Positions 5,985 to 54,722 are shown, numbered from the stretch's first letter. The stretch is DNA of 64,000 nt from Candidatus Omnitrophota bacterium (GCA_903901225.1 CAIUQE010000037.1:106580-170579), one strand, 5' to 3'. Program-made: numbers and translations. The notes: generated by a model from the letters alone, not told the origin.

Positions 5985-5994
5985 CGCGACTCCT

Positions 5995-6396: not shown

Positions 6397-6411
6397 CAGC
6401 CCCCCCGGTTC

Positions 6412-7581
6412 TTAGGCCAATACTTTGCTCATCCGCTGGACCGCCTCATGGATGCGCTCGACGGGTACCGTGAGGGCCATGCGCACATACCCTTCACCGC
6501 ACTTGCCGAAACCGACTCCGGGCGTCACAACGATATCCGCCTGATCCAGGAAAGCTTTCGCGCAGGCCATCGAATCAGGAAATTTCGACGGTATTTTGGC
6601 CCAGACATAGTAGGCCCCTTTGGGCGGGTCGATCTTCCAGCCCAACGAACGGCAACCATTGATCAAGGCGTCCCGGCGCTCCTGGTAACAGGTCCTCATA
6701 TCCTCAATTTCAGCGGTATCCATCTGAAGCGCGGCAATGCCCGCGTGCTGGATGGCATTGAAAACCCCTGAATCCACATTGGACTTCACTTTCGCCAATG
6801 CCGCCACAAGCTGAGGATTACCGCAGGCCCAGCCCAACCGCCAGCCTGTCATGAAATACGTCTTGGAGAATGAATGGAATTCAATGGCGATATCTTTGGC
6901 CCCCGGGATCTCAAGGATGCTCGAAGGCTTGAGCCCGTCGAAATAAACTTCCGAATAGGCAAGATCTGAAACAATGATGATATTTTTTTGGGTGCACACC
7001 CGGACCAGTTCGGTATAAAACTCTTTGGTGGCCACGGCAGCCGTCGGATTGTTCGGGTAACAAACAATGATGGCCTTCGGGTCCTTGGATGCTTCGATAT
7101 CGGTTATCTTGGGAAGAAAATCATTCGACGCCTTGAGCGGCAAATACTGGATCTTCCCGCCGGCGAACGCAACCGCCGCCTGGTAAGCGGGATACGCGGG
7201 ATCACCCAGCAAAACCTTGTCGCCGGGATTGATCACCGCCAGAGGAAAGTGAGCGAGGCCTTCTTTGGAACCAATGAGCGGATAAACTTCACTCGCCGGA
7301 TCAAGCGGGACATTAAAACGCCGCAAAAACCATCGGGCGATCTCAACCCGTAATTGCGGCACGCCCGCGTCGAACGGATAATGATGGTTAGCCCCGTCAT
7401 CAACAGCCTTTTTCATCGCCTCAACGATCGGCTTATGCGTGACCTGGTCCGGATCACCGATCCCCAGGCTGATCACATCGCGGCCTTCCGCGATAGCCGC
7501 CCGTCGGGCTTTGTCAATTTCCACGAATAAATACGGAGGCAACTGTTTGAGACGCTCGGAAACCTCAAAATTTAAAGGCAT
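6412..7581 (-). CDS. dapL: LL-diaminopimelate aminotransferase (DapL-type class I aminotransferase)
   Basis: 389 aa; PLP-lysine motif SFSKTYFMTGWRLG; embedded at the end of the dapB-dapA-dapF-lysA run with no dapD/dapC/dapE present. Confidence 0.8.
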   Translation of the reverse strand: MPLNFEVSERLKQLPPYLFVEIDKARRAAIAEGRDVISLGIGDPDQVTHKPIVEAMKKAVDDGANHHYPFDAGVPQLRVEIARWFLRRFNVPLDPASEVYPLIGSKEGLAHFPLAVINPGDKVLLGDPAYPAYQAAVAFAGGKIQYLPLKASNDFLPKITDIEASKDPKAIIVCYPNNPTAAVATKEFYTELVRVCTQKNIIIVSDLAYSEVYFDGLKPSSILEIPGAKDIAIEFHSFSKTYFMTGWRLGWACGNPQLVAALAKVKSNVDSGVFNAIQHAGIAALQMDTAEIEDMRTCYQERRDALINGCRSLGWKIDPPKGAYYVWAKIPSKFPDSMACAKAFLDQADIVVTPGVGFGKCGEGYVRMALTVPVERIHEAVQRMSKVLA

Positions 7582-7588
7582 AAAACTC

Positions 7589-8305
7589 CTATATCAAACC
7601 CAGCACTTGCTGCATGTTGAATAATCCCTTATCCTTCTTTTTCAGGAATTTTGCGGCGACAAGGGCTCCCGCGACGAACATGTCACGGTCCTTGGCATTA
7701 TGGGAGATCTCGATGGTGTCGACCGGTCCTTCAAAAACCACCTTGTGGTACCCGACAACCTCCCCCTCCCGCAGGGACTCAATATCCGTTATCTTCTTCC
7801 CGGTCACACCTTCAACGACCTCGGCCATGGTCTTTGCCGTACCCGAAGGCGCGTCTTTTTTGTGCACATGATGGGTCTCGGTAATACCGACATCATACCC
7901 TTTAAGGACCGTCGCCATCTGTTTCAGGAGGCCAAAAACCAGGTTGACGCCCACCGACATATTGGTCGACTGGACGATCGCGATCTTCCGCGACGCCTTG
8001 GTGATCAATGAACGCTGTTCTTCAGAGAAACCCGTCGTTCCTATAACCGCCCGCACATTATGCTTCAAACAGGCCTTGAGCGCTTCGATAGACGGCCCCG
8101 GCAGTGTAAAATCGATCAGGACATCCGCGCCTTTGATGGCATTGATATCCCGCGACACCTTGACCCCTAACAATTGGGCCGGAACATCCGCGCGGTCGGG
8201 ACTTTCGATCAGCGCCGTGATCTTGAACGACTTGTCCCTTGAAGCAAGCAGGGCAATGCGCTGACCCATCCGTCCCTGGCAACCGGTGATCGCTAGTTTC
8301 ATCAT
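7589..8305 (-). CDS. dapB: 4-hydroxy-tetrahydrodipicolinate reductase
   Basis: 238 aa; N-terminal MMKLAITGCQGRMGQ Rossmann and conserved ETHHVHKKDAPSGTA segment typical of DapB. Confidence 0.92.
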   Translation of the reverse strand: MMKLAITGCQGRMGQRIALLASRDKSFKITALIESPDRADVPAQLLGVKVSRDINAIKGADVLIDFTLPGPSIEALKACLKHNVRAVIGTTGFSEEQRSLITKASRKIAIVQSTNMSVGVNLVFGLLKQMATVLKGYDVGITETHHVHKKDAPSGTAKTMAEVVEGVTGKKITDIESLREGEVVGYHKVVFEGPVDTIEISHNAKDRDMFVAGALVAAKFLKKKDKGLFNMQQVLGLI

Positions 8306-27024: not shown

Positions 27025-27828
27025 ATGTTACCGATATCTGATTACCATATGCACACACCCCTGTGCGGTCACGCGACAGGCGAACCCCAGGCCTACGCGA
27101 GGCGCGCGATCGAGGTCGGATTGAAGAAGATCGGGTTTTCCGACCACGCCCCCCTTGTGTCACACAATGACCGTTCCATCACGATGGACCATTCGCAACT
27201 GCCCATTTACCACCACATGATCGAAAGCGTGCGCTCCGAATTTGAGGACGATCTGGAGGTCATTGTCGGGATCGAGGCGGATTTCATCCCCGGCTATGAG
27301 GAACTCACGCGCTCCATGCTCAGCGCCTATCCCTACGACTATGTGATCGGCTCCGTCCATTTCATCGAAAAATGGGGTTTTGACGACCCGATCCAGATGA
27401 AGGAATGGAACGCCCGGGATGTGAACGACGTTTACCGCGAGTACCACCGCCTGCTGCGCAAGAGTGCTTTGTCACGGTTGTTCGACGTGCTCGGGCATGT
27501 GGACCTTGTGAAAAAATTTGATTTCCACCCCACGGTGGACATCACGGCGGAGATCGAGGAGAACGCCCGCGTGTTCAAGAAGACCGGCGTCATTGTGGAA
27601 GTGAACAGCTCGGGCCTGCGCAAGCCCGCGAAAGAAATTTATCCTGCCCTGCACGACCTGAAGATCTACTGCGCCAAAGGGGTCCCGATCACGTTCGGCT
27701 CCGACGCCCATGACCCGCACGACGTCGGGCGAGATTTCGACAAGGCGCGCGACCTGGCCCTGGCCGCGGGGTACACCGAGTACGTCCTGCTCAAAGGCCG
27801 CAAGGTTTCACATACCGTTTTACTGTGA
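27025..27828 (+). CDS. hisJ: Histidinol-phosphatase, PHP family (HisJ/HisK type)
   Basis: Supplied ORF 26926..27828; PHP metal-binding motifs DYHMHT, GFSDHAP, EVNSSG; likely start MLPISDYHMHT at 27025. Confidence 0.8.
   Translation: MLPISDYHMHTPLCGHATGEPQAYARRAIEVGLKKIGFSDHAPLVSHNDRSITMDHSQLPIYHHMIESVRSEFEDDLEVIVGIEADFIPGYEELTRSMLSAYPYDYVIGSVHFIEKWGFDDPIQMKEWNARDVNDVYREYHRLLRKSALSRLFDVLGHVDLVKKFDFHPTVDITAEIEENARVFKKTGVIVEVNSSGLRKPAKEIYPALHDLKIYCAKGVPITFGSDAHDPHDVGRDFDKARDLALAAGYTEYVLLKGRKVSHTVLL
27590..27828 (+). repeat. Direct repeat copy A (3' end of hisJ), ~95% identical to 29096..29334
   Basis: By my manual alignment the two copies differ at about 12 positions over ~235 nt; 11 changes are synonymous and one is T->K. 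Confidence 0.85.
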
Positions 27829-27919
27829 TTTATCCCAGTCACTTTCCCTGATCTTTCCTGACCTTTGTGTGTACCCTCTAGTAAACACATGTCTATTTAA
27901 GTAAACGACAACGTCATCA

Positions 27920-28327
27920 CTACTCCGGCAGTTTGGCCATTCCCCACTGATAAAATCGCTCAACTTGTTTTAAAATATCAAGCGCATCCGCCTGACGGAA
28001 ATCCCGTTCTTCATACTCAATGGCTGTTTTCTTCGCAAGGATCCTGGAATAATTCTTCGCCTGAGCCTCTACGCCATCGATGTTCACCCTGTAAAGAAGC
28101 TCCGCGGCCGTGGCATGATCCTCCCCAGCGGAACGTTGACCCAGATGACACACAGTGATCGCATCGTTAAGCGCGATCGCGCAATGAACCGCGTTGACAC
28201 CTAAAGCTGCCCAATATTCTTTTTGTTGCGCAACTTGCATCATTTCATACAACTGACTGGCTCGATCCAAAAAGATCGTATAACTGCTTTTTGCAACGAT
28301 CTTTACTTTCATCGACCTGGCATTCAT
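27920..28327 (-). CDS. hepT: HEPN-domain toxin (HepT-like, Rx4-6H RNase motif)
   Basis: 135 aa; HEPN motif RSAGEDH (R-x5-H) in CHLGQRSAGEDHATAAELL; 4-nt overlap with upstream MNT gene. Confidence 0.78.
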   Translation of the reverse strand: MNARSMKVKIVAKSSYTIFLDRASQLYEMMQVAQQKEYWAALGVNAVHCAIALNDAITVCHLGQRSAGEDHATAAELLYRVNIDGVEAQAKNYSRILAKKTAIEYEERDFRQADALDILKQVERFYQWGMAKLPE

Positions 28328-28950
28328 AGAAATGCCTCCAATTTTTTACCCCAAATTATTTTATTCGAATCCAAAGCCGCTTTAATAAACGACAGCCCCT
28401 CGGAGGATTTTTTACGAAATTCAGCAACTGAATAAATGTGTGCGTCTATACTTAACCCGACTTCCTGCAAGACAGAAACGTTGATATCCAGAAATAAGTC
28501 TTCCACAAGAGATCTTACTTTCTCACTGTTGATAAGCACAAGCAGATCAACATCACTCGTCGGACGCTCCTTTTTTTTATGAACGCTTCCAAACAAAGCT
28601 ACTGACACAATATCTTCTTTGATCCCAGAACCTTCTATTTTTTTATGAAATTCCGTCCAAAGATCCGACGGATAATCTCCTTCCGTCTTGAACATGGGTT
28701 TTAACACTTTTGCCACGACCCAATTCTTCGGGTTTAAGCCGTACGCGTGCACTGTACCAAAACCTTTCCTCTCCAGCACTCCTTCTTCATAAAGGTCCCG
28801 AAGAGCCACCCTGACAGTCGTTGTCGAAGCCTGCAGTAATTGCGCGACCTGTCTCCCGCTGGTCTCGCCCCCAACAGAACAAAACAATCGCAAGATCTTT
28901 ACTTTAGTCTCACTATTCAAAATTTTATTCAATGGTTTATTCAACCGCAT
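28324..28950 (-). CDS. mntA: Minimal nucleotidyltransferase antitoxin (MntA-like) fused to an N-terminal winged-HTH
   Basis: 208 aa; NTase signature ALFGSVHKKKERPTSDVDLLVL (GS...D.D); N-terminal wHTH KILRLFCSVGGETSGRQVAQLLQASTTTVRVALRDLYEEGVLER. Confidence 0.78.
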   Translation of the reverse strand: MRLNKPLNKILNSETKVKILRLFCSVGGETSGRQVAQLLQASTTTVRVALRDLYEEGVLERKGFGTVHAYGLNPKNWVVAKVLKPMFKTEGDYPSDLWTEFHKKIEGSGIKEDIVSVALFGSVHKKKERPTSDVDLLVLINSEKVRSLVEDLFLDINVSVLQEVGLSIDAHIYSVAEFRKKSSEGLSFIKAALDSNKIIWGKKLEAFL

Positions 28951-28954
28951 ATTA

Positions 28955-29065
28955 ACTGCTTCCCATTTCTATGTTCCGCTTTCAGTTCATGTGTGCCATT
29001 TTCAGTCTACATGAACTGTTTTCGGTTCATAGGATATAATAAAAAATTACACTTGTCAAGCCGGT
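28955..29065 (-). promoter_or_regulatory. Promoter/operator of the mntA-hepT operon
   Basis: Minus-strand TTGACA (complement of 29055-29060) then a TATAT -10 about 15-17 nt downstream. Between promoter and ATG lie three imperfect direct repeats (ttccgctttcagttcatg / ccattttcagtctacatg / ctgttttcggttcatag). GTCACTG/GTGACTG repeats sit upstream. Confidence 0.45.
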
Positions 29066-29095
29066 CACTGTGACTGTCACTGCGCCTCCACGGCC

Positions 29096-29334
29096 TCATT
29101 GTGGAAGTGAACAGCTCGGGACTGCGCAAGCCCGCGAAAGAAATTTATCCTGCTCTGCACGACCTGAAGATCTACTGCGCCAAAGGGGTCCCGATCACGT
29201 TCGGCTCCGACGCCCATGACCCGCACGACGTCGGGCGCGATTTCGACAAGGCGCGCGACCTGGCCCTGGCCGCGGGTTATAAAGAATACGTCCTGCTCAA
29301 GGGGCGCAAGGTCTCACATACTGTTTTGCTGTAA
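29096..29334 (+). repeat. Direct repeat copy B (displaced 3' end of hisJ)
   Basis: See copy A; copy B begins right after the HEPN/MNT promoter region and ends with its own stop codon (TAA). Confidence 0.85.
29101..29334 (+). pseudogene. Orphan C-terminal fragment of histidinol-phosphatase (77 codons, no N-terminal PHP motifs)
   Basis: Translation EVNSSGLRKPAKEIYPALHDLKIYCAKGVPITFGSDAHDPHDVGRDFDKARDLALAAGYKEYVLLKGRKVSHTVLL is identical to the hisJ C-terminus except T->K. Confidence 0.7.
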
Positions 29335-29339
29335 TTCCA

Positions 29340-29735
29340 TCAAAAATCCTGCAGAGCAACCACGATATTAGGAAAAGCCTTCAGAAGATATTTATCAGCT
29401 GTCGCAAGCTTGACCCCCAACATCTGCGCCAGGGCAACATATTCCGCGTCATACGCCGAGCACCCCCCATGGCAAGCGGTCTCCATGACCTGGGTGGATG
29501 GGACACTTTTTGTCCGCGGACTAAAAACAAGCTCCACCCTGACCGCAAGCTCGATGGCATCCTGACGAGCTAATTGTTTCGCGCGCACAAAACCCAGCAG
29601 GATATTCCTGAATTCCGACACCATGATCGGCGGGACGATCCAGACAGTATCCTTCCGGATCACCGCTTGCGCCAACGGCTGAAAAGGCCCCGGCAAATAA
29701 TAATACGCGACAAGATTCGCATCCGCGACGATCAT
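29340..29735 (-). CDS. vapC: PIN-domain ribonuclease toxin VapC
   Basis: 131 aa; MIVADANLV N-terminus with acidic PIN residues (D5, E42, D... pattern); 4-nt overlap with upstream antitoxin. Confidence 0.78.
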   Translation of the reverse strand: MIVADANLVAYYYLPGPFQPLAQAVIRKDTVWIVPPIMVSEFRNILLGFVRAKQLARQDAIELAVRVELVFSPRTKSVPSTQVMETACHGGCSAYDAEYVALAQMLGVKLATADKYLLKAFPNIVVALQDF

Positions 29736-29971
29736 GCCTGGCCTTCTTTCTTGAAACGATCGATATCCTCGGGCAATGCCTCGCCCTTGAACGCATGGCG
29801 CATCAACGCCGCATCAAACGCCATCTGCTGGGCATCCAGCGGCACGAACCCTGTTGCCGTTTCAAGGCTGGAAATGATCTCATTGTTCAAACTGCGATGT
29901 CCCATAACGGCCCTGCGCTTTAAAACCTCATGCAACCGGCGCGGTATGTTCTTGACAGTAATATTGGCCAT
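29732..29971 (-). CDS. vapB: VapB-type antitoxin (ribbon-helix-helix, FitA/StbC-like)
   Basis: MANITVKNIPRRLHEVLKRRA matches the RHH antitoxin N-terminus; supplied ORF extends 12 codons further upstream. Confidence 0.7.
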   Translation of the reverse strand: MANITVKNIPRRLHEVLKRRAVMGHRSLNNEIISSLETATGFVPLDAQQMAFDAALMRHAFKGEALPEDIDRFKKEGQA

Positions 29972-30006
29972 GGCAAGCCCTCCTTGATAGAACCATAACA
30001 CAACCA

Positions 30007-30477
30007 TTATGGTTCGTCAATGATCGCTGAATACATAAACCCGGATTTTTCATTAGAAAAATCTGCCCCGCAGGGGTCGCGTGGCAAATCCAACACCCGC
30101 TCCATCTCTCGTCGATCCTTCTTGGTCGGTCGCCCTTCGCCTTTCGCGCGACGCGGCGCCCATCCGCCCTTGATGAGGGCAAGCTTATTTCTTTCTTCTG
30201 GTGGGGTTATATCCTCACAGCACTCTTTTACAAGCTGAGCACCAACCCGTTTATCGATGCATTTCAAAACCCGATACTGCCAGCTGACACCTTCTTTTCG
30301 AACAACGATCACCTGCCCTATCTTTACATCCCGCGACGGCTTAACCGCCTGCCCGTCGATACTTACCTTATGCCTTTTACACAGATCAGTTGCTATCAAC
30401 CGCGTCTTGCAAATGCGCACCGACCACAACCATTTGTCGATCCGCACGCTGATTGAAACAGGATCAGGACCCGTCAC
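30007..30477 (-). CDS. S4-domain RNA-binding protein (Hsp15/YbcJ-like)
   Basis: VRIDKWLWSVRICKTRLIATDLCKRHKVSIDGQAVKPSRDVKIGQVIVV is a classic S4 fold signature; basic C-terminal tail. Confidence 0.65.
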   Translation of the reverse strand: MTGPDPVSISVRIDKWLWSVRICKTRLIATDLCKRHKVSIDGQAVKPSRDVKIGQVIVVRKEGVSWQYRVLKCIDKRVGAQLVKECCEDITPPEERNKLALIKGGWAPRRAKGEGRPTKKDRREMERVLDLPRDPCGADFSNEKSGFMYSAIIDEP

Positions 30478-44401: not shown

Positions 44402-46105
44402 TTATTCAAGATTGCCGGCTGACAACGACCGCCTGGAACGCAAATAAAATGCCAGCCCGGCCAGAAAAAGCAACGATACCCAGGATAAAACACCCGCCAT
44501 CAGCCGCAACGGTGTTTGTCCCAGGAATATCTTCACGTCATGCTCCCCTGGTGGCACCTGAAAGAGGATCAAGCCCCAAGGGTTGTCATATACGATGGCG
44601 GTTTCTTTCTTGTCGACCGTGACCTTCCATCCCAAGAAATAAAACTGATGGAAGCAAAGGATAGACTGGGTTGCGGCATTCACATGAAACTCATGCCGCG
44701 ATGAGGACACTTGACGGGCACTCGTAATGACAGCCACCCCGCGGGCAACCTCATACCTTTGGTCCGGCGGCTTCAAAGGAACAGCCTTGACCCATACCGG
44801 CAAGAATCCCTTGCTGTCCATCGGACGGGTATTGTAAAGAAATTGCTGCGGGTCTTTAATATCGTACGATCTCATCGGATTGATAGGCGCTTCAAAGGGA
44901 ACGCTGACCACGATCAGGAACAATGACGCCGCCACGGCCAGCAACCATCTCAACCTGCCGTCGACCCATAAAACAAAACCTCCGGCGAGAAAAGATATGC
45001 AGAACGAAATGGCAACGAAGATGCGCCAGGGGAACTGGACATATTTCAATACCGGGATCGCGTCCCAGACAGGCAGTGCGCGATCGAGGGTCATGAACCC
45101 TAAAACTGCCGCGGCAAGCAACCAAAAGATCTGGATCCATGTCCGATTAATATCCACACGCCAGATCTTAAAGAACGCCAGGAAAGACGAGCCCACAAGA
45201 ATCAAATGAACCCATCCAAGCTGAAATGACGGCCCCATGCCCTGTCCCAGCGGCCCTGACTTCCACGGCGCGAAGATAAGATGGTACAGGGACATAAAAT
45301 GTTGATGATAATCCCCAAGCCCGCCATAAATGTTGCTGTTGGTAACATACTTCATCTCAAGATTGGCCGGAAGCCAGTAATAAGTGGTGATCCCCAAAGC
45401 ACAAGCCACCGCCAGCAAGACCCAGGCTAGCCCGGAACGTTGCGTTGGCCCAACGATAAAAAACAGGAAGAACGCGTACGCGATGGCCACGGGAAAGAAC
45501 AGGATCATCGTGATATTATGCGAAAGGATCAATCCCGTGACCGACAGCGCAAGGCCAATGAAAGCCGCGGCATTCAAGCGCGCGAAGACCCTGTTAATGT
45601 AAAAGATCACGAACGGCAGGAAAATATAGGCGAACATCTGCGCGAAAGCCGTGCGCCGGTAAATATCGCACAAATGGAACGGCGCGAAAATGAAGGCTAC
45701 CGCTGACAACAGCGCCCCGGGACGTCCGAAAAAATCGCGGGCGAGATAATACATCCCCACCCCGGAAAGAAAGAACGAAAGAACAATCGTCAAATTCGCC
45801 GCGAGAAGGAAGTCCCGGACAATGAAGAACAAGCCGGCGGCGACATAATAAAAAAGCGGCGGATAAAAATTGAACAGGGAATAACCGTAACCAAAGTTGA
45901 TGTCCGGCAGCCAGCGGGCGGCGAATTGGCCATCCTGCCAGACATGAACAAGCCCAATAAGCCTGAGCAGCCCCGCGTAAACATCTTCCGACCCGATCAC
46001 CTGCGAACCCAGAAAAGACTTCGCTGCCAGCAATGACAAGGCAAACAGCGTTGTCACGCAAACCAGGTCCTGGAACCATGCTTTTTTCAGCAAACCGGAA
46101 TTCAC
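44402..46105 (-). CDS. Polytopic membrane protein, GT-C-like (ArnT/PMT/YfhO-type glycosyltransferase superfamily) - tentative
   Basis: 567 aa; >10 TM segments with large loops, Trp/Tyr-rich; family assignment by architecture only. Confidence 0.35.
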   Translation of the reverse strand: MNSGLLKKAWFQDLVCVTTLFALSLLAAKSFLGSQVIGSEDVYAGLLRLIGLVHVWQDGQFAARWLPDINFGYGYSLFNFYPPLFYYVAAGLFFIVRDFLLAANLTIVLSFFLSGVGMYYLARDFFGRPGALLSAVAFIFAPFHLCDIYRRTAFAQMFAYIFLPFVIFYINRVFARLNAAAFIGLALSVTGLILSHNITMILFFPVAIAYAFFLFFIVGPTQRSGLAWVLLAVACALGITTYYWLPANLEMKYVTNSNIYGGLGDYHQHFMSLYHLIFAPWKSGPLGQGMGPSFQLGWVHLILVGSSFLAFFKIWRVDINRTWIQIFWLLAAAVLGFMTLDRALPVWDAIPVLKYVQFPWRIFVAISFCISFLAGGFVLWVDGRLRWLLAVAASLFLIVVSVPFEAPINPMRSYDIKDPQQFLYNTRPMDSKGFLPVWVKAVPLKPPDQRYEVARGVAVITSARQVSSSRHEFHVNAATQSILCFHQFYFLGWKVTVDKKETAIVYDNPWGLILFQVPPGEHDVKIFLGQTPLRLMAGVLSWVSLLFLAGLAFYLRSRRSLSAGNLE

Positions 46106-46180: not shown

Positions 46181-47485
46181 TTAAGAACTAAGAAGTTCAC
46201 CTTTTAACTGGTGCGGCGTGGCACGGGTAATGCGGACATTCACCATATTCCCTGCCTTGAACGCGCCCTGAGCGAGGGCCACGATCTTGTTGGCATCGTT
46301 GCGCCCATACGCGCCGCCATCGTTGATCTTCCCGGAGGATTCAACAAGGACTGCCTGGACCTTCCCCACCAGTTCCTTGTTCTTTTGCAAAGAAATGTCC
46401 GTCTGTAATTTGTTCAACCGGACGATCCGAGCTGTCTTTTTGGCTTCCGAAACGTCATCCTTCCACTTGAGCGCGGCTTCAGTCCGCGGACGCGGAGAAT
46501 ACTTGAAAATGAACGCCGAATCAAAACGCGCCTCTCGTGTCAGCTCAAATGTCTCCTCGAATTCGGCGTCTGTCTCCGTAGGAAACCCGACAATAATGTC
46601 CGTCGAAAGGGCCAACGACGGGCATGCCGCGCGCAGTTCTCCAACAAGCGACATGAACTCCCTCCCTGTATAATGACGCCGCATGAGTTCAAGGACACGA
46701 TCATTGCCGGCCTGCAAGGGCAAGTGGACCTGCTTGCAGACCTTCGGGTTAGTGGCCAGGACCTGAATAAGGTCTGCCGGGAAATCTTTGGGATGGGGCG
46801 AGGTAAAACGGATGCGTTCGATGCCTTTGACCGTTGAGACCTGGTCAAGAAGGCTGGCGAAGTCCACACCGTCCTGCCGGTAAGAATTGACATTCTGACC
46901 CAGGAGCGTCACCTGCTTGAATCCTTCATCCGCCAGTCGTCGGACCTCATCGATGATATTGCCCGCGGGCCGGCTGCGTTCCCTTCCCCGGGCGTGAGGG
47001 ACGATGCAAAAAGAACAGAAATTGTTGCACCCGCGCATCACCGCCACCCAGGCATTCACGCCTTCCGCGCGCGCCGGAGAGACATCCGCGTACGTCTCGC
47101 ATTCGGAAAGGGTCACGTCATAACCTGGACCATCCACGGCAGCCGCCAGTATCTCCGGCAAACGCTTGTAACTGTCGGGGCCGACGACAAAATCCAGCGC
47201 CAGATGTTTGTTCTCGATCAACTCCTGGCGCAGCCCCGTGGCCATGCAGCCCAGGATGCCGATCAAGGCCGGCTTGCCATTGCGGCGATGACGGAGATCA
47301 TGGATATGGCCGTAAACCTTGCGGTGGGCATTCTCGCGGACGGAGCACGTGTTGAGCATGATGATATCCGCATCGAGATCATCCTGGGTGAACACATATC
47401 CCGCCGCAGAAAGGATGGAACGAACGATCTCGGTGTCGTATTCGTTCATCTGACAGCCGAAACTGAGAAGGTAAATTTTTTGCAA
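46181..47485 (-). CDS. miaB: tRNA-2-methylthio-N6-dimethylallyladenosine synthase
   Basis: 434 aa; N-terminal Cys triad plus radical-SAM CNNFCSFC and TRAM domain. Confidence 0.93.
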   Translation of the reverse strand: MQKIYLLSFGCQMNEYDTEIVRSILSAAGYVFTQDDLDADIIMLNTCSVRENAHRKVYGHIHDLRHRRNGKPALIGILGCMATGLRQELIENKHLALDFVVGPDSYKRLPEILAAAVDGPGYDVTLSECETYADVSPARAEGVNAWVAVMRGCNNFCSFCIVPHARGRERSRPAGNIIDEVRRLADEGFKQVTLLGQNVNSYRQDGVDFASLLDQVSTVKGIERIRFTSPHPKDFPADLIQVLATNPKVCKQVHLPLQAGNDRVLELMRRHYTGREFMSLVGELRAACPSLALSTDIIVGFPTETDAEFEETFELTREARFDSAFIFKYSPRPRTEAALKWKDDVSEAKKTARIVRLNKLQTDISLQKNKELVGKVQAVLVESSGKINDGGAYGRNDANKIVALAQGAFKAGNMVNVRITRATPHQLKGELLSS

Positions 47486-47532
47486 ATTGCTAACCTCTAT
47501 AGCGTTACAATTAAATACTACGGGATGAACAA

Positions 47533-48039
47533 TTATGACTTAAAGGCAGGAAAAACAAACACGTCAGGATCAGTATATTCATAAACTTTCTTTACGCGTC
47601 TTGAAGGATTCTCCGCATGCCCCTCCCCCTGCCGAACATCCATATCAATATAAGCCCTTCCATTCTTCAAGGACATCCTATTGATCTCGATTGCTCCCTC
47701 TAAACGACGGGATGCCTTGTGCACAAGCCTCTCTCCATCATTGATCAAGAAGTTAAGCACATAACAATAACCACTACCTCCGGAATTCTGTTCTGTTATA
47801 ACCGCAGCATCCTTCAATCCGTCGTCATTGAGATCGCCATAAATATACTTATTATAGTAAAAAACATTCAGAGGCAATGAGCGATAAGAAGAGTTGACAA
47901 GTGTTACGGACTCAACAGAACGCTCATCACCTATATAATAAGTCATATTCCCGAACAAGCGCGCTGCATTACGATTCTCTACCCCACAGCCGGCCAAAAA
48001 AACTATCAGAACCAAGAATAAGGTCGAGACTAATCGCAT
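47533..48039 (-). CDS. Lipoprotein, hypothetical (island gene)
   Basis: 168 aa; signal peptide + lipobox LAGC; AT-richer codon usage than flanking genes; 10-nt overlap with upstream SLT gene. Confidence 0.5.
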   Translation of the reverse strand: MRLVSTLFLVLIVFLAGCGVENRNAARLFGNMTYYIGDERSVESVTLVNSSYRSLPLNVFYYNKYIYGDLNDDGLKDAAVITEQNSGGSGYCYVLNFLINDGERLVHKASRRLEGAIEINRMSLKNGRAYIDMDVRQGEGHAENPSRRVKKVYEYTDPDVFVFPAFKS

Positions 48040-48737
48040 ATGAATACCGGGTGTTCATCAATCGTAACCCAATGCCCCTTTGAACAACGACCTTTGGGCT
48101 TGTTGATTTTCTTATTCTTTGCTCCCTTATCCACCAAAGATTTATCAGAAAATTCAGCTTCATTCTTAAAAACATCTTTAACATATTTACGTACTTGATC
48201 TGGATTATCCGCTTTAGCTTGCTCCAAAAACGCCTGAACATCATTCCAGCTTTTGGGATTCTTTTTAGCTTTTTGAGCCAATGCCTGCGCCTTCGCTATA
48301 GTTCCTTCGCCACCATTATAGGCCGCAAGGATAAACTTCTTTCGCTCTAATACATCCTTGACAGGTATTGTTTTTATTTTCGCTGATAAAATAGTTTCTT
48401 TAGAAAATGATCTGTCGAGATCGTCTATATACCGAGCTGCTGCAATGGATGCATAATCAATATCAAAACGCTGGTCATTCTTCTTAGAAACAATTAAATG
48501 ATAGCGTTCCGCCGTATCTCGTTGTAAATGAAAGTGTCCTGCGGCACCGTCCATGCCTCTATCTCTTTTTAATACCCCGAAACTGCTCTCCTGTCCATAG
48601 ATTGCTTCCAGCGTATTTACAGACAACGCATCATTCTTATCAAAATAACTCGATGCATTCTCAAGAGCCTTGCGTATATGTGAAGTTTCCCGTGCAAGCC
48701 AACCATCAACATCTGTTCTTCTTGGTTTTTTTGCCAT
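48030..48737 (-). CDS. Lytic transglycosylase (SLT domain) lacking a signal peptide
   Basis: 235 aa; SLT motifs EAIYGQESSFG, GHFHLQ, AAYNGGEG; N-terminus MAKKPRRTDVDGW is hydrophilic. Confidence 0.7.
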   Translation of the reverse strand: MAKKPRRTDVDGWLARETSHIRKALENASSYFDKNDALSVNTLEAIYGQESSFGVLKRDRGMDGAAGHFHLQRDTAERYHLIVSKKNDQRFDIDYASIAAARYIDDLDRSFSKETILSAKIKTIPVKDVLERKKFILAAYNGGEGTIAKAQALAQKAKKNPKSWNDVQAFLEQAKADNPDQVRKYVKDVFKNEAEFSDKSLVDKGAKNKKINKPKGRCSKGHWVTIDEHPVFICD

Positions 48738-48794
48738 AATCTTCTACCTCCTATCTGATCATTATCGCTTTTATGAATTGCGCAACCTGATCAA

Positions 48795-50120
48795 TCAAAG
48801 AACAACCCCATCATTTAACAAAAGCCATTTCCAGAGAGCAGTATAAATTATCTTTCTACCCTTGTGCTCTTCAATTGCTTCATAGTCATCAGTCAATATT
48901 ACCGCATCATCAATCTTCAGCTCATCCATAGCCTTAAGAAGGCTTTTCGTTTCCCGATTTCTAGTCTTTTCATCTGTCAGATTCCAACAAACTTGTATAA
49001 GCCCATTTGTTTTTGTACCATCTTTCAACACAAAATCAACTTCCCTATGCTGTTCATCTTTCCAGTAGTAGAGCTCAAGCTCGGGGTTAAGCACCTGTCT
49101 TTTCTTTAGAGCCAGAAAAACAATATTCTCAGCAAGCCTCCCTACATTTTCAGAAAAGCGAAATCCTACGGAGTTACATAACCCCGGGTCTATTGCGTAT
49201 ACTTTTCTTGGACTCTTTTCCTGCTCTTTTACTTTGAACGAGAAGCGTTTGACGAAGAATACAAGGTAGACATCCTCAAAATATCCGGCGAATTTCTCGA
49301 TAGTATCAGCCGATGCATGAAGGAACCGTTCCGTCGACATAAACGTAGTGAGATTCCCGACATTGCTCAAATAGTATTTTATGAGCGACTTCATGACCTG
49401 CGGTTTTCTCACACTGAATCGCTTAAAAAGGTCTTTTACAAGAAGGTCTTCAAAGTATTTCAGCAGTATTTCTCTCTTTTGCTCCGACAGGACAACTTCA
49501 GGAAAAGAGCCGAACTCCATATATCTGCGAAAAAGGCCTCGTATTTCGGCTTCCTTCCCGGCTATATCGAGATTGTCTGTAATCGTGATCTTGTTAAACG
49601 CCAAGAATTCAGTAAATGATAAAGGAAACACTGTAAGATCAAGATGTCTGCCCGTAAGAAGCGTGCCCAGTTCGCGGCTTAACAGTTTTGCATTTGAGCC
49701 GGAGACAACTATTTTTGCCTTCTTCAGCTCGTGCATCATGCGAACCCATTTCTCCCATCCTTCCACTTCCTGGACTTCATCAAAGAATATGTAAGGTATA
49801 CCTGTAGGTGAGAGAAATTCCTTATAGACATCAAATATCTGTGTCATGAGTTTTGCATCAAGCGTAGAAAATCTGGGATCTTCAAAATTAACGAGAAGAA
49901 TATTTTCTTTCTTTACGCCTTTCTCGGTAAGCTTCTTTGCCATCTGCCGCATAAGATATGACTTACCAGCACGTCTGGGGCCAGTTATCGTTATGACCTG
50001 ATTTGACGTTAAAAGGGCTTCCAGCCTGCCAAGATAGGCATCCCTGACGACACCGGTAGCCTGCTCCGTCCGCCAACTATTCCAGTCATTCAATACCGCT
50101 AAAATCTCATTTTTGTCCAT
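48795..50120 (-). CDS. AAA+ ATPase with C-terminal DUF4143-like domain (COG1373-type)
   Basis: 441 aa; Walker A GPRRAGKS, Walker B IFFDEVQ. Confidence 0.72.
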   Translation of the reverse strand: MDKNEILAVLNDWNSWRTEQATGVVRDAYLGRLEALLTSNQVITITGPRRAGKSYLMRQMAKKLTEKGVKKENILLVNFEDPRFSTLDAKLMTQIFDVYKEFLSPTGIPYIFFDEVQEVEGWEKWVRMMHELKKAKIVVSGSNAKLLSRELGTLLTGRHLDLTVFPLSFTEFLAFNKITITDNLDIAGKEAEIRGLFRRYMEFGSFPEVVLSEQKREILLKYFEDLLVKDLFKRFSVRKPQVMKSLIKYYLSNVGNLTTFMSTERFLHASADTIEKFAGYFEDVYLVFFVKRFSFKVKEQEKSPRKVYAIDPGLCNSVGFRFSENVGRLAENIVFLALKKRQVLNPELELYYWKDEQHREVDFVLKDGTKTNGLIQVCWNLTDEKTRNRETKSLLKAMDELKIDDAVILTDDYEAIEEHKGRKIIYTALWKWLLLNDGVVL

Positions 50121-50172
50121 ATAAATAGTCTGTATTAGTCAGGATTTATAAATCTTACCTATTACAACGTAA

Positions 50173-50201
50173 AATATACGTTAAAAACCTGATTTTGTCA
50201 A
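50173..50201 (-). promoter_or_regulatory. Near-consensus sigma70 promoter for the AAA-ATPase/SLT/lipoprotein operon
   Basis: Minus strand TTGACA (complement of 50196-50201) - 17 nt - TATATT (complement of 50173-50178); ~45-nt leader to ATG at 50120. Confidence 0.45.
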
Positions 50202-50279
50202 ACAAGAAGGCAATAATAACAAGCTCATTATTTCTTTGCCAGCCCCTAAAGTTTTACTTAAAAACCACTTCAGAATTTT

Positions 50280-50345
50280 CTCAACCTCTGTCCTTTTTCG
50301 CATCCATCCGACATCCGAAGGTCAACAGGGCGACTTTTTTTGAAT
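50280..50345. repeat. Island repeat element, copy 1 (31-nt core identical to 52763-52793 followed by degenerate second half)
   Basis: ctcaacctctgtcctttttcgcatccatccg is 31/31 identical to copy 2. Confidence 0.75.
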
Positions 50346-50388
50346 TACTTGTCATTTCAGCCACTTACAGCTCCGTCCTTTACGAGAT

Positions 50389-51759
50389 TCATCTGACCTG
50401 AGATGAATGATTATGACTTTTTCCAATCTGTTTCGATCGATTCGCCAAATCAATACAGGAATACTGAGTCAACGGATCACTCTCTTGTATAGCTAAAATG
50501 GCCCAAGCGCCACCAACAGCACTCAAACTCCCGGTTGAAGGAGTTTTATTTTCATGTCCGATTTCAGCGTCAGACAAAGTTGCATACGGGAAAGCCAAAC
50601 CACTTGAATCCTCAGAAGCAGCCGCTAGCAATTGTTCCAATAATTGTTCTCTCTTGCTTCGATATATTTCAGCCTTTTTATTCTCACCCAACTGTTTATA
50701 ATCATGCGCCAGTCGGCCATAAGCATTGATCAATTGAAAGGTCCATTCAAAAGAAACCATCTGTAGACGTTTTAGTTCCCCTACTCGTTTTTTGTCAGTA
50801 AAATCAACCCCACGAATAATCATCGTCTTCCCTGCAAGAACAAAAGAACTTTCCGAGAGACAATTTTCTTCAACAAACGCAATCATTCTTTCTGCCGCAC
50901 CAGGTTCAATAAAATTTAATCCATCCACCCCCAGGGCAGAAATCCCCCAACTCTGTACGTCAGTAGCAACCATCTGATCCTTATAGCCACGATTAAACCG
51001 ATGCTCAGACTTGTTCCAGGCATTATTCTTAAGCCACTGCAAACAATTGGCAGCGGCAAGCTGATATGTGTTTTTCTTTGTTACCTGAAACAGTCTCTGA
51101 AATAACGCATAGCCATCAATGGAAACTTCTGTTGCATACACTCGATAAAATTCAGGCATTCCAAGATCGCACCCAATATATTGATCTTTCGAATAGGCAG
51201 GGTCTCCCTTTGGGCCTAACGCGATGCCTCCATAATTAGCATCTTTATTGTCTGAATTCTGCAGGGAAGCGGTGAAGTTCGCGATTTTCTCAGCCAGCTC
51301 TAAATATTTTTGTTCCTTTGTGCTCAGGTAAAGGTTTATAGCGGCAATTCCTATCCAAATATTAGCGCCACCACGAACTGACCAATCTTTTCCTAAGAAA
51401 GTTTTTCCGGCAACATAACACTCAATAATTCCTCCCAAACGCCAGATTTGAGGTGTATCAATATAATAATCCAATATTTTCTTGGCATCGGAATATTTAC
51501 CAACAGCTGAATACGCCAAGGCCACAACCGCCGCATCATACGTTATAGTCCAATGTTGGAATCGAGCATCCCCAACATGACTAAACGGAAGCCCGGTATC
51601 TTGGTCGCTGTTAGTTCTTAACCAATTAGAGAATTTATCGGCATAATTTTGGCTAATATCATTCGAATCTGGGACGGCACATACTGCGGAAGCGCTTAAA
51701 ACAACAAAAAGAAAACTGACGAAGAGAGTACGTGTAATAACGAAACAGTTCGTGTTCAT
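50389..51759 (-). CDS. Secreted protein with probable alpha/alpha-barrel glycoside-hydrolase-like fold
   Basis: 456 aa; signal peptide; recurring aromatic/Ala-rich helical hairpin pattern; family not resolvable. Confidence 0.35.
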   Translation of the reverse strand: MNTNCFVITRTLFVSFLFVVLSASAVCAVPDSNDISQNYADKFSNWLRTNSDQDTGLPFSHVGDARFQHWTITYDAAVVALAYSAVGKYSDAKKILDYYIDTPQIWRLGGIIECYVAGKTFLGKDWSVRGGANIWIGIAAINLYLSTKEQKYLELAEKIANFTASLQNSDNKDANYGGIALGPKGDPAYSKDQYIGCDLGMPEFYRVYATEVSIDGYALFQRLFQVTKKNTYQLAAANCLQWLKNNAWNKSEHRFNRGYKDQMVATDVQSWGISALGVDGLNFIEPGAAERMIAFVEENCLSESSFVLAGKTMIIRGVDFTDKKRVGELKRLQMVSFEWTFQLINAYGRLAHDYKQLGENKKAEIYRSKREQLLEQLLAAASEDSSGLAFPYATLSDAEIGHENKTPSTGSLSAVGGAWAILAIQESDPLTQYSCIDLANRSKQIGKSHNHSSQVR

Positions 51760-52640
51760 GCCCGGATCGCCCGTCCCTTGGCCGACTTGTCATTTTTCTC
51801 CAGCTTCTTTTTCTTCTCCGGCTCTAGAACGTAGTTTTCTTTTGTCGAGACCGGACGACCCAACTCACGCTCCGTCTCTTTCCTGGCATTGCCGGCCACT
51901 CGCCCGCCGCGCTTAGCCGCACCCTCAACTTGCTGATACCCCTGAGCATCTTCCTGCCGTGTAATCTCGGTTGAAACTCGTTCTCCCAGCATAGAAAAGA
52001 TCAGTTCCAAGTCATTCATGTGGTCGCGGAGATTTTCCTTATCCAGCCCTTTGAAATTCTTGTATTCGCTTGGCGTCATACCGAAAGTGGCTTTTGAAAT
52101 TTCTGCGGTCAAGATCGCATATTCCCGTTCCTCAGACACTCCCCGCTTCTTCCACTCATCCGTTAACTCATCCGTTAACTCATCCCTAACCGCAATACCG
52201 CGAACTCGCTTCTCAATCCAGCCCTCGGAATACCCCTTGGCCCGGTAAATATCCTTCATCCTCTTTTGAGCCAATTCAGGGTTGGCTATTTCCTGAACCC
52301 TATCATATCCAACCTCGGCCAACCACTGCTTGAAAGGCTCCGCTTTCTTTGATGGGATCGACTGAATAACTCGAAAGGCATTCTTGGTTGTAACGCAATC
52401 CGTCGCATAAGCCTTTCCGTCAGCAGCCAAAACTTTCAGTTGTCCGATTTTTTCGGACAACTGAAATCCTTCATCAATCAGCCGCTTCTTCAAGTCGGCC
52501 CAATACTTGCGCGCCCGTCCGGTTTCAGTCAATGCCTCAACAATATCAACGACAGAAAACCACCACTCGTCATTGGACCAAACCCGTCTTATCTTCTTGT
52601 TTTGAAACACCACAAGCGACTTGTCTTTGTCCATAAACAA
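51756..52640 (-). CDS. dinD: DinD-like (Bro-N domain) DNA-damage-inducible-type protein
   Basis: 294 aa; N-terminal KSLVVFQNKKIRRVWSNDEWWFSVVDIVEALT matches the Bro-N/DinD signature; contains in-frame 12-nt tandem repeat (ELTDELTDE). Confidence 0.68.
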   Translation of the reverse strand: MFMDKDKSLVVFQNKKIRRVWSNDEWWFSVVDIVEALTETGRARKYWADLKKRLIDEGFQLSEKIGQLKVLAADGKAYATDCVTTKNAFRVIQSIPSKKAEPFKQWLAEVGYDRVQEIANPELAQKRMKDIYRAKGYSEGWIEKRVRGIAVRDELTDELTDEWKKRGVSEEREYAILTAEISKATFGMTPSEYKNFKGLDKENLRDHMNDLELIFSMLGERVSTEITRQEDAQGYQQVEGAAKRGGRVAGNARKETERELGRPVSTKENYVLEPEKKKKLEKNDKSAKGRAIRA

Positions 52641-52750
52641 CCTGTATTTAATAAAGAGTTAATAAATTTATCTGGCAACTCACGCCAAGAGATTAATACC
52701 TCATATATTACCCTGTTTCAAACTTTATTGCCCTGCTTCCTAACAAACGC

Positions 52751-52830
52751 CTTCAAAATCCGCTCAACCTCTGTCCTTTTTCGCATCCATCCGTCAGCCA
52801 AAAGTTTGCAGATATACGTGTTTCATCCAG
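52751..52830. repeat. Island repeat element, copy 2 (full ~80 nt)
   Basis: cttcaaaatccgctcaacctctgtcctttttcgcatccatccg + tcagccaaaagtttgcagatatacgtgtttcatccag. Confidence 0.75.
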
Positions 52831-52903
52831 TACACCTTCCTGCAAAACTTTTAGCGCATCCCAAAGGTTGTGCCGAGCGCGAAGCGCGAGAAGCCACCGT
52901 GGG

Positions 52904-52936
52904 ACAGCCGAAAGTTTGAAGGTAAACTTTGTTCAT
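52904..52936. repeat. Island repeat element, partial copy (second half only) abutting the fic stop codon
   Basis: acagccgaaagtttgaaggtaaactttgttcat, containing the hairpin aaagttt-gaaggt-aaacttt. Confidence 0.6.
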
Positions 52937-52938
52937 AA

Positions 52939-53934
52939 TTAATTCAATTTATTGATCAAATTTGTCACCAATGCCGAAATGACGGCCTTCTCCTTTGGCT
53001 GGCTTTCAGCGATCAGAAGCGTGATGGCGACCAGCGCATTATCCGCAAGGCGTTTGCTGCCGTCAGGCCGATAAAGAATTTTATTCCGGTCCAGGAACCA
53101 AACAAACAGCGCCGCGGCGATACGCTTGTTACCATCTGAAAAAGCATGGTTTTTTACAACCAGATAAAGAAGGTTAGCCGCCTTCTCCTCAACGCTAGGA
53201 TACAAGTCTTTTCCGCCAAACGTCTGATAAATTGCCCCCAAAGCACTCTTGAAAGAGGCATCTTTTTCATTTCCAAACAACCCACTGGCTCCAAACTTCT
53301 TACGCATCTGCTCGATAACATTTATACCTTGCTCATAGGTCAACTGGTAGGACTCTTTAGCAGTCGCCGACTTGATCTTGGTTCGTCCATGGTCATAATC
53401 GTCCAGGATATCCAACCCGTACCTATAATCCCGGATGACCTCGAACAAGCCTTTAGCCTCATCACTCGTTAATGCTTTACGCTCACTCAAATCAGCCAAC
53501 ATCTTCACAGCCTGTTGCAATGTCTTTAAACTGGCCGTATGTTCCTTGAGCCGCTTTTCATTAATGGTATAACCCTGGATCAGATGTTGTTTCAAAACAT
53601 TCGTGGCCCAGATGCGGAATTGCGTCCCCCGCTTGGAATTAACACGATATCCAACGGAAATGATCATATCTAAATTATAAAAAGCTGTCTGATATGTCTT
53701 CCCATCTGCGGCAGTATGTGCAAAAAATGCACATACTGAATCCTCTTTAAGTTCTTTAGAATTCAGTATGTTACGAATATGCTTAGTCACAACGCTACGC
53801 TCAGTTAAAAATAAGTCTGCCATTTGGGCCTGCGTTAACCAAACAGTCTCATCCTTCAACTTAACCTCTAGAGATACTTTTGCCCCTTGAGGATGAAAAA
53901 CGATCAGATCAGTCTTTTTTACTTTATCTTCCAT
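52939..53934 (-). CDS. RhuM-family N-terminal domain fused to a Doc/Fic-family domain (Doc-like motif HAFSDGNKR)
   Basis: 331 aa; N-terminal LTQAQMADLFLTERSVVTKHIRNI (RhuM-like), C-terminal Fic/Doc motif HAFSDGNKRIAAALF. Confidence 0.72.
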   Translation of the reverse strand: MEDKVKKTDLIVFHPQGAKVSLEVKLKDETVWLTQAQMADLFLTERSVVTKHIRNILNSKELKEDSVCAFFAHTAADGKTYQTAFYNLDMIISVGYRVNSKRGTQFRIWATNVLKQHLIQGYTINEKRLKEHTASLKTLQQAVKMLADLSERKALTSDEAKGLFEVIRDYRYGLDILDDYDHGRTKIKSATAKESYQLTYEQGINVIEQMRKKFGASGLFGNEKDASFKSALGAIYQTFGGKDLYPSVEEKAANLLYLVVKNHAFSDGNKRIAAALFVWFLDRNKILYRPDGSKRLADNALVAITLLIAESQPKEKAVISALVTNLINKLN

Positions 53935-53940
53935 AAATCC

Positions 53941-54020
53941 TCTCCAAAATCCTCAATATCATCGTGCGTATCTTCTCCATACGGTCAGCAGAAAGTTTGC
54001 AGATAAACGCGTTTCATCCG
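53941..54020. repeat. Island repeat element, copy 3 (full ~80 nt) just upstream of the fic start
   Basis: Second half tcagcagaaagtttgcagataaacgcgtttcatccg nearly identical to copy 2; contains palindrome aaacgcgttt. Confidence 0.75.
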
Positions 54021-54137
54021 GCGTCCCTCTTTGCCATCACGAGAATTGTGTCGCATATCAGATATTCCCATTATCTCAAAAAAATCTGAACCATTCTTTT
54101 CCTTCGGCACTTAATTTCTAAAATGGAATTCTCTAAA

Positions 54138-54722
54138 TTATGATAAAAGCCGGTGCCGCCAGCATGTCGTCAGGTGATCGTTGACCAGGCCGGTCGCCTG
54201 CATGTGGGCATAAATGATCGTGGAACCGACGAACGACATGCCGCGTTTCTTCAGGTCCTTTGACAACGCATCGCTTTGCAGGCTGGTTACGGGGATGTCT
54301 TTAAACGTCCGGCAACGGTTGACGATCGGCTTTCCACCTACAAAAGACCAGACATACGCGTCAAAACTCCCAAACTCCTGCTGTATCGCCAGGAACACAA
54401 GGGCGTTGCGGCGCGCCGCGAAGATCTTGAGTCTGTTGCGGATAATCCCGGGATCAAGCATCAACTTTTCAAGCTCTCCATCCGTCATGCACGCCACCTT
54501 CAGAGGATCAAAACCATGGAATGCTTTACGATAACCATCCCTTCGGCACAAAATCGTGTACCAACTCAAGCCAGCCTGCGCGCCCTCAAGGATCAGGAAC
54601 TCAAAATGAATCCGGTCATCACGGACAGGCACGCCCCATTCAGTATCGTGATAACGCTGGTAAACCGGCTTGTCCATCCCCGCCCAGGGGCAACGGATCC
54701 TGTCTTTTAATTTCTTAACCAT
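54138..54722 (-). CDS. tag: DNA-3-methyladenine glycosylase I
   Basis: 194 aa; RCPWAGMD ... YQRYHDTEWG zinc-binding Tag signature. Confidence 0.92.
   Translation of the reverse strand: MVKKLKDRIRCPWAGMDKPVYQRYHDTEWGVPVRDDRIHFEFLILEGAQAGLSWYTILCRRDGYRKAFHGFDPLKVACMTDGELEKLMLDPGIIRNRLKIFAARRNALVFLAIQQEFGSFDAYVWSFVGGKPIVNRCRTFKDIPVTSLQSDALSKDLKKRGMSFVGSTIIYAHMQATGLVNDHLTTCWRHRLLS

Follow-up and report, generated by a model that had tools for sequence, protein, structure and literature searches.

A low-GC island upstream of miaB in an Omnitrophota genome, read as a probable row of integrase-less gene cassettes inserted at the miaB start

The DNA analysed here (the window) is a stretch of 64,000 nucleotides from a Candidatus Omnitrophota bacterium (GCA_903901225.1 CAIUQE010000037.1:106580-170579), with positions counted from its first letter. 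Between miaB and tag, from 47486 to 54137, it carries an island with a GC content of 0.4253, against a mean of 0.5436 (standard deviation 0.0079, minimum 0.52) in 88 other 6.65-kb segments. At 47.3-47.7 kb a 500-nt profile shows GC falling from about 0.56 to about 0.40, and at about 54.1 kb it comes back up. GC content at third codon positions (GC3) is 0.33-0.57 in the six island genes and 0.62-0.68 in miaB, tag, GH26, nadA and an etfA-like gene. Likewise, the tetranucleotide L1 distance between the island and the rest of the window is 0.444, compared with 0.10-0.13 for control segments. All three measures bear out the original prediction of an AT-richer island between miaB and tag, and the shift in composition supports its being horizontally acquired, foreign DNA. 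The six genes lie on the minus strand, as do the flanking tag and miaB, and their earlier assignments hold at the family level. So does the reported lack of an integrase: profile searches, PHROG included, matched none of the six proteins to a recombinase family. No tRNA gene or Rfam family was detected in the island, two sub-threshold Rfam matches being due to chance; a tRNA or non-coding RNA as insertion target was ruled out on this ground.

The original prediction had the genes separated by repeat elements. These are real and non-random, but their nature had been overlooked. They are pseudo-copies, on the miaB strand, of the first approximately 11 codons of miaB, and they mark the borders of the units that we call cassettes. 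From tag to miaB, all on the minus strand, the features are:

54138-54722, minus: tag (3-methyladenine glycosylase; PF03352, E = 8e-77), the conserved left flank
54017-53984, minus: scar J0, MKRVYLQTFC followed by a stop; adjoins the tag-miaB intergenic region
53983-52903, minus: cassette 1, RhuM-Fic gene, 1.08 kb
52936-52903, minus: scar J1, MNKVYLQTFGC; begins 5 nt past the RhuM-Fic stop codon
52902-52793, minus: cassette 2, cargo-less, 0.11 kb
52827-52902, minus: 76-nt spacer of cassette 2 between J1 and J2; holds a further decayed junction-like sequence, GGGATGCGCTAAAAG
52826-52793, minus: scar J2, MKHVYLQTFG followed by a stop, the Cys codon now being TGA
52792-50310, minus: cassette 3, Bro-N and secreted-protein genes, 2.48 kb
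52737-52792, minus: left arm (P′) of cassette 3, first 30 nt as in cassette 4
50388-50419, minus: motif M of cassette 3 (50402-50419) and palindrome TTCATCT-CAGGTC-AGATGAA (50388-50407)
50355-50310, minus: scar J3, displaced miaB-type start MTSNSKKVALLTFGC (..KKVALLTFGC); core GGATGTC at 50316-50310
50309-47452, minus: cassette 4, ATPase, SLT and lipoprotein genes, 2.86 kb
50254-50309, minus: left arm (P′) of cassette 4, first 30 nt (GGATGGATGCGAAAAAGGACAGAGGTTGAG) identical to those of the cassette 3 left arm
47486-47557, minus: arm of cassette 4 from the cargo to the new miaB start, with motif M at 47524-47541 (AAGTCATAATTGTTCATC)
47485-47452, minus: J4, the live and apparently cassette-supplied miaB 5′ end, TTG-CAA-AAA-ATT-TAC-CTT-CTC-AGT-TTC-GGC-TGT-C (MQKIYLLSFGC); core GGCTGTC at 47458-47452
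46181-47485, minus: live miaB, TTG start, MQKIYLLSFGCQMN...; Pfam UPF0004, Radical_SAM and TRAM

Every cassette ends in a miaB-type start, and the last such start is the one in use. The live gene has all three Cys motifs of the N-terminal domain intact and a Shine-Dalgarno-like GAGG 8 nt upstream of its TTG. J0, J1 and J2 share the pattern M-K-x-V-Y-L-Q-T-F-G-C; a relative, L094, has the live start MKYVFLQTFGC, and J0 is probably the ancestral miaB start. The J3-type N-terminus is live in the relatives P0003, P0019 and P0024. Some stubs end in a stop codon that overlaps the next start codon (J1/J2, and also in locus L098). The stubs are no closer to the resident live start than to one another, contrary to what local duplication would produce. 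The degenerate miaB 5′ pattern of J0-J2 matches three times in the window, against none in 100 shuffles. Likewise, the 25-mer GGATGGATGCGAAAAAGGACAGAGG occurs twice against 0 copies expected, and the 18-mer AAGTCATAATYRTTCATC (motif M) twice against 0.12. Motif M is an inverted mimic of miaB codons 12-17 (GATGAACGAATACGAC) and ends the cargo before both J3 and J4, while the 30-mer GGATGGATGCGAAAAAGGACAGAGGTTGAG directly follows both J2 and J3. The right half of the palindrome at 50388-50407 is the miaB core GTCAGATGAA; as a general site, however, TTCATC-N-GATGAA was discarded, as it occurs only once in the window and is not systematic. We consider it probable that the AT-rich island consists of four or more small gene cassettes, all without an integrase and inserted serially into the first codons of miaB. 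The earlier view of a single island would thus hold for the island as such and give way, as to its make-up, to cassettes arrayed in tandem at an insertion site used across the lineage.

The closest other lineage, L092 (MiaB 86% identical), has the same frame, GH26-tag ... miaB-nadA-...-suf, with 4 kb of different low-GC DNA between tag and miaB. The cargo there comprises an ISL3 transposase fragment, a GDSL lipase, a decayed OXA-like gene and a 377-aa protein of no assigned family. Nucleotide homology ends at window position 54148, about 10 nt before the tag stop codon, and restarts at 47459, inside the core (..CGGCTGYCAGATGAAC..) and exactly at GGCTGYCAGATGAAC. The live N-terminus of L092 is unrelated (MKQDKRICLITYGC), and the 5′-end type that is live in the window, VQKKIYLLSFGW, is present in L092 as a dead stub (6446-6490), 1.4 kb upstream of miaB. 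With different cargo at the one site, the two lineages have independent occupants, and a change of occupant goes along with a change in the miaB stretch that precedes the first Cys codon. Thus neither is composition uniform across the locus nor is the island present in all relatives, the closest of which has other cargo at this position. A separate 58-nt match of 98% identity, between L092 49-106 in a far-left gene and an open reading frame at 30034-30091 of the window, beside a second low-GC islet described below, indicates that the two lineages differ by a rearrangement.

Scars upstream of a live miaB, and on its strand, were also found in a GTDB Omnitrophota assembly (L010), in JGI contigs (L095, L096 and L098) and in L175/L176, and the pattern recurs in seven lineages. 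L010, L095, L096 and L098 came from MiaB scans of GTDB and JGI in which the matches listed were mostly from distant phyla; stubs were absent from more than 150 miaB loci of other phyla (GTDB genomes and JGI metagenomes) that served as controls. Four loci with MiaB 50-73% identical (L094, L178, L009 and L011) have no stubs, and L177 has an M-like motif only. Relatives at about 72% MiaB identity carry the names Candidatus Omnitrophica or Omnitrophota. Across the family, synteny is kept downstream of miaB; upstream, every locus is different. The other arrays hold cargo that is mostly of the toxin-antitoxin kind and includes a Gp49-type killer with its antidote, a DUF4160/DUF2442 pair, an HTH_37 protein, a DUF4172-Fic protein and small secreted or membrane proteins, every cargo gene seen being co-oriented with miaB. 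L010 and L098 have homologous killer/antidote cassettes right after the stub, the antidotes being 81% identical over 53 residues compared with 61% for MiaB. Cargo-less units of 80-110 nt are found in the window, L098 and L175. In the available stretches of L092, L098, L010, L095, L096 and L175 no recombinase was seen between or beside the stubs.

Alignment of 12 stubs with 9 live starts revealed a junction signature. The Cys codon TGY reads TGG in seven stubs and TGA in two (9/12), and six stubs continue after the switch with CNG-ATG-G(A/G)(T/G)-GC where the live gene has CAR-ATG-AAY-GAR. On the 5′ side of the switch point the partners share no more than about 8 nt (TAYGGCTG), which is too short for RecA recombination. 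Judged from these alignments, the fixed switch point looks like an attL left by conservative site-specific recombination with a short overlap, the attP mimicking the attB. A second class of left arm, CCA...TAAGGAA-N-TGGCACT, is present in L098 (stub C) and L175; a sigma-54 reading of TGGCAC in the seemingly empty units was ruled out on spacing, by inspection. Of about 13 Omnitrophota-like loci, 5 have motif M at a distance of 60-110 nt upstream of their live start, against a background of 1.6% per 210-nt window. The window and L092 have it in inverted orientation; L095, L096 and L177 have it direct. In L092 the match is perfect (18/18): GTGTCGTATTCGTTCATC at 7808-7825 and GATGAACGAATACGACAC at 7916-7933 form an 18-nt inverted repeat that brackets 90 nt with the ribosome-binding site, the start codon and the first 12 miaB codons, a geometry that would allow inversion of the gene start.

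An Omnitrophota assembly, GCA_043798045.1 (L187), contains a 98%-identical homologue of the cassette 4 ATPase. It aligns with the window in three blocks:

L187 2-2686 = window 50208-47524, 92.9%: promoter, ATPase, SLT and lipoprotein genes; ends at the last base of M
L187 2672-2786 = window 50416-50303, 88.7%: J3-type arm replacing the J4-type arm
L187 2766-2961 = window 53996-53801, 79.6%: after the core, J0-type left arm and the first approximately 45 RhuM-Fic codons

L187 thus joins these modules in another order: the J0 P′ half follows a 5′ half other than in the window, and a J3-type N-terminus stands in a new setting, with breakpoints at M and inside TTCGG/CTGAC, which suggests recent site-specific exchange at M and the core. 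In a further genome (L188), rrf2 and etfB enclose a lone ATPase gene, 86% identical and accompanied by the same promoter region of 88 nt. This solo copy suggests that the unit moves by other routes too; it was set aside as a scar-type insertion, as no gene-end repeats surround it. The uncultured population from which the window comes is present in several ENA and Logan assemblies. Its long contigs are all 100% identical over the island; contigs tend to break at the junction repeats, one ending at 52764 and one starting at 50309. Two contigs from two other samples, L005 and L006, share only 72 nt upstream of miaB and then diverge. With the re-assortment in L187, these breaks and this variant are the only, and indirect, signs of excision or circularisation.

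These features suggest a mechanism in which small cassettes, probably as circles, would each use for recombination a site imitating the stretch of miaB between the ribosome-binding site and approximately codon 17. The crossover would fall in or just after ..TTY-GGC-TG.., the F/Y-G-C of the first iron-sulfur cysteine. The left arm of such a cassette would resemble miaB past the crossover (consensus TG(G/A)-CNG-ATG-GAT-GCR), and the right arm would consist of motif M, a ribosome-binding site, a start codon and about ten codons mimicking the miaB N-terminus, with cargo genes co-oriented with miaB between the two. Insertion would leave miaB intact with a new 5′ end and the old start upstream as a dead stub that soon meets a stop codon, the cargo coming to lie between the old start and the gene; repetition would give the order scar-cargo-scar-cargo...-miaB. 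Because no recombinase is encoded in the island, the enzyme would have to act in trans, from elsewhere or from a lost autonomous relative, or to have acted in the past from elements since lost. Directional insertion would account for the uniform co-orientation of the cargo, and so would selection for read-through into miaB. A circular intermediate, the kind of recombinase and the co-transcription of cargo with miaB are what we infer from this arrangement. Site-specific, recurrent insertion that regenerates the miaB 5′ end is the explanation that we hold to be likely.

Several observations count against this explanation. Among window open reading frames of at least 180 aa, the only size class screened, none encodes a recombinase; all are housekeeping genes (among them uvrA, panC and the dap, arg, fab, isp and suf genes). 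Nor was a recombinase found in the annotated flanks of related arrays, and about 15 Omnitrophota-like loci yielded no autonomous partner element. Neither a circular form nor an empty site was seen, all full-length contigs of the population carrying the same array, and exact searches with the left-arm 24-mer and 21-mer gave 0 matches in JGI metagenomes and IMG/VR. The consensus left arm is missing from J0 and J1, in which the core is followed by different sequences; in stub A of L098 the switch point is displaced downstream by about 20 nt; and a motif M in either orientation is not expected under a simple att model. L187 is a 9.9-kb contig without miaB and with a truncated RhuM-Fic gene, for which chimeric assembly at the repeats is conceivable, and the similar cassettes of L010 and L098 are explicable by vertical inheritance. 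Separately, miaB-core matches in IMG/VR proved to be proteobacterial host miaB at provirus edges only, and unrelated.

The array could instead descend from integrase-bearing elements or prophages that integrated in tandem at the miaB 5′ end and then lost their integrase and core genes, leaving a fixed array. The scars have the look that tandem integrations would give to residual attL/attR sites, phages commonly carry Bro-N, Doc-like and endolysin-like families, and J0, J1 and the 76-nt unit show signs of decay. The contigs of the population do not differ from one another, and Dehalococcoides provides a known case of fixed tandem islands. Yet about 14 cassettes in the seven lineages show no integrase or core gene of a phage or of an integrative and conjugative element, and the units are tiny (0.08-2.9 kb) and have nonetheless kept both arms. 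The identical left arms of cassettes 3 and 4 and the re-assortment of junction halves in L187, exactly at the core and M, also speak against decay alone, and we regard this history as unlikely, though deserving of some weight.

Homologous recombination at a hotspot, with the DNA between tag and miaB swapped after transformation and the stubs arising as Campbell-type by-products of circles with a captured miaB fragment, would explain why L092 has conserved flanks and different content; moreover, the second islet is flanked by a gene-end duplication of 246 nt and 94% identity, long enough for RecA. Homologous recombination would need more than the miaB stubs offer, namely about 8 nt of exact identity at the switch and a similarity of 60-70% over some 35 nt. 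Lineages far apart have the switch point and the TGG/ATGGATGC signature in common, and distant relatives have the scars even where the upstream flank is unconserved. We therefore judge this improbable. Still more so, and the least credible of the alternatives, is the idea that the miaB-like stubs and the inverted M are leader reading frames or an invertible 5′ switch on miaB. It could draw on the inverted repeat around the L092 miaB start, on the inverted M 60-100 nt upstream of a start (twice in the window and once in L092) and on the overlap of stub stops with following starts. However, the stubs are very divergent, often stop at the Cys position and lie kilobases of foreign genes away from miaB; M is direct in three loci; and no inverted-state contigs were seen. 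The junctions also show no excess folding. Reconstructed junctions gave z values of -1.3 to +0.6, and the reconstructed cassette junctions folded no better than shuffled sequences on either strand (z -0.55 to +0.58), which led us to reject the idea of integron attC-like hairpins as well.

The preferred reading, serial cassette insertion, leaves the cargo genes to be described. They are, with a promoter-like site:

47533-48039, minus: lipoprotein, cassette 4; lipobox LAGC; weak XAC2610-family match (NF047539, E = 0.005, below the cut-off)
48030-48737, minus: SLT lytic transglycosylase, cassette 4; PF01464, E = 5.7e-10; phrog_669 endolysin; no visible signal peptide
48795-50120, minus: AAA_14 and DUF4143 ATPase, cassette 4; PADLOC candidate PDC-S01
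50173-50201, minus: promoter-like TTGACA-17-TATATT upstream of the ATPase gene; 11/12 match; moves together with the gene
50389-51759, minus: secreted 456-aa protein, cassette 3; weak GH76 matches; one homologue named 'AGE family epimerase' by NCBI
51756-52640, minus: Bro-N/DinD-like protein, cassette 3; PADLOC candidate PDC-S13
52939-53934, minus: RhuM N-terminal domain and Fic/Doc toxin domain, cassette 1; PADLOC candidate PDC-S23

The region with the promoter-like site is shared, homology with both L187 and L188 beginning at 50208. The lipoprotein gene overlaps the SLT gene by 10 nt. XAC2610 is the immunity protein of a peptidoglycan-hydrolase effector, and the two genes may form an effector/immunity pair rather than encode a cell-wall housekeeping enzyme. 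For the product of 50389-51759, the predicted secretion stands; the alpha/alpha-barrel part of the earlier call is no more than plausible, given the weakness of the GH76 matches, and the protein is possibly an (alpha/alpha)6-barrel. Its family is common in Omnitrophota and Desulfuromonadales; the homologues were dismissed as cassette evidence, as they lie in polysaccharide-type contexts and not beside miaB. Within the Bro-N coding sequence, at 52434-52466, a perfect 14-bp stem with a 5-nt loop is followed by a T-rich run, resembling a minus-strand terminator.

Three of the proteins match PADLOC families strongly (E = 5e-120 for PDC-S01, 2e-114 for PDC-S13 and 7e-136 for PDC-S23). The PDC families are 'phage defence candidates' picked by guilt-by-embedding, and no validated PADLOC system model was matched. 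The defence or abortive-infection content announced by the original prediction thus has its counterpart in three family matches, all to candidates: the cargo would be of addiction or defence type, the defence role being a hypothesis drawn from candidate families. The alternative description as a decayed prophage finds support in cargo-type families only (Bro-N phrog_15286, a Doc-like toxin and the endolysin-like SLT protein, to which PHROG adds a match of the generic ATPase); the island has no phage structural, replication, lysis-cassette or integration genes.

The window contains a second small low-GC islet, organised along similar lines, at 27585-30010. A PHP-domain gene has its 3′-terminal 246 nt (27585-27830) duplicated at 29091-29336 with 94% identity, and the length of this repeat suffices for RecA-dependent integration. 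The two copies flank a HEPN-like and MNT nucleotidyltransferase pair (27920-28950, minus strand), followed by a PIN/VapC-like and antitoxin-like pair (29340-30007), with no recombinase. Between miaB and nadA, a gene for a 567-aa membrane protein (44402-46105; PF10131, PTPS_related) is found in this lineage only; its GC3 is host-like (0.64), its AT skew is extreme, reaching 0.45, and miaB is followed directly by nadA in L092, L094, L175, L177 and L178. In L177 (MiaB 71% identical), 4770-6654 encodes bAvd and a reverse transcriptase, resembling a diversity-generating retroelement, and an ISL3 transposase lies with them a few kilobases upstream of miaB. About one fifth of the close MiaB relatives (P0001, P0020, P0023, P0025, P0030, P0034, P0035 and P0040) are annotated from an internal MNEYD or MNESD, which drops the first cluster cysteine. 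In the window the internal start call results from the real start being TTG; elsewhere internal starts may reflect replaced non-ATG 5′ ends.

If the scars are what we take them to be, they log the order and the exact site of each acquisition and provide a reading key for an integrase-less 'defence island'. In a phylum that is uncultured and poorly known, the miaB 5′ end emerges as a target of insertion across a lineage, and the indicated target of the recombinase, ..TTYGGCTG/YCAGATGAA.., is conserved in miaB across bacteria. The stubs can serve to locate cassette borders in other Omnitrophota assemblies; they would also account for assembly breaks upstream of miaB and for gene callers often starting MiaB at the internal MNEYD.

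Known islands and prophages at dusA integrate in the 5′ end of a tRNA-modification gene, supply a new 5′ end and leave the old remnant at the far border (Farrugia et al. 2015, PMC4482086), and a mobile element targeting the MiaB-like gene rimO has also been noted (PMC4482086). As at dusA, the live miaB start differs between sister lineages up to the core, with old starts upstream. The dusA islands are large, however, with a dedicated tyrosine integrase by the att site, whereas the miaB units measure 0.1-2.9 kb, lie in tandem in an Omnitrophota-like host and lack an integrase; no tyrosine integrase is present in the window array, L092, L098, L010, L095, L096 or L175. The ssrA islands of Dehalococcoides are tandem at one end of a single-copy housekeeping gene, have direct-repeat borders, are low in GC and break synteny (PMC3146451); 15 of them lack an integration module and have been proposed to be cis-mobilizable (PMC3146451). 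Similarly, J0-J4 delimit units without integration or transfer genes. Those islands use the 3′ end of an RNA gene and a 20-bp repeat, and many have the serine recombinase DsiB, whereas the site here is a coding 5′ mimic and no integrase-bearing member was seen; the miaB repeat is under selection to encode a working N-terminus. By analogy, the array would combine 5′-end replacement of the dusA type with tandem integrase-less islands of the Dehalococcoides type.

Integrase-less defence hotspots of E. coli, Pseudomonas and Vibrio also have variable AT-rich defence or toxin cargo between conserved genes, the exchange being attributed to flanking homology; they are not known to be split by repeated copies of the start of a flanking gene. 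With integrons, the array has in common the rows of small, co-oriented and recombinase-less cassettes, rich in toxin-antitoxin genes and each ending in a recombination site, behind a resident promoter: here four co-oriented units of 0.11-2.86 kb without a recombinase of their own. It differs in that at least one miaB-array cassette has a promoter-like site of its own, and in that its site is a gene-start mimic rather than an attC hairpin. Moreover, no intI or attI adjoins the array (no recombinase match was obtained in the island or its flanks, and the left neighbour is tag), and the GTTRRRY core is absent from the cassette junctions. A tentative extension, which we put forward as possible and no more, is that Omnitrophota have an integron-like capture platform, with docking at the first codons of miaB, recombination sites that mimic coding sequence and a trans-acting recombinase working at the core and M. 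Were this true, each capture would rebuild miaB and add a stub, with the new cargo lying downstream of the miaB promoter and start signals.

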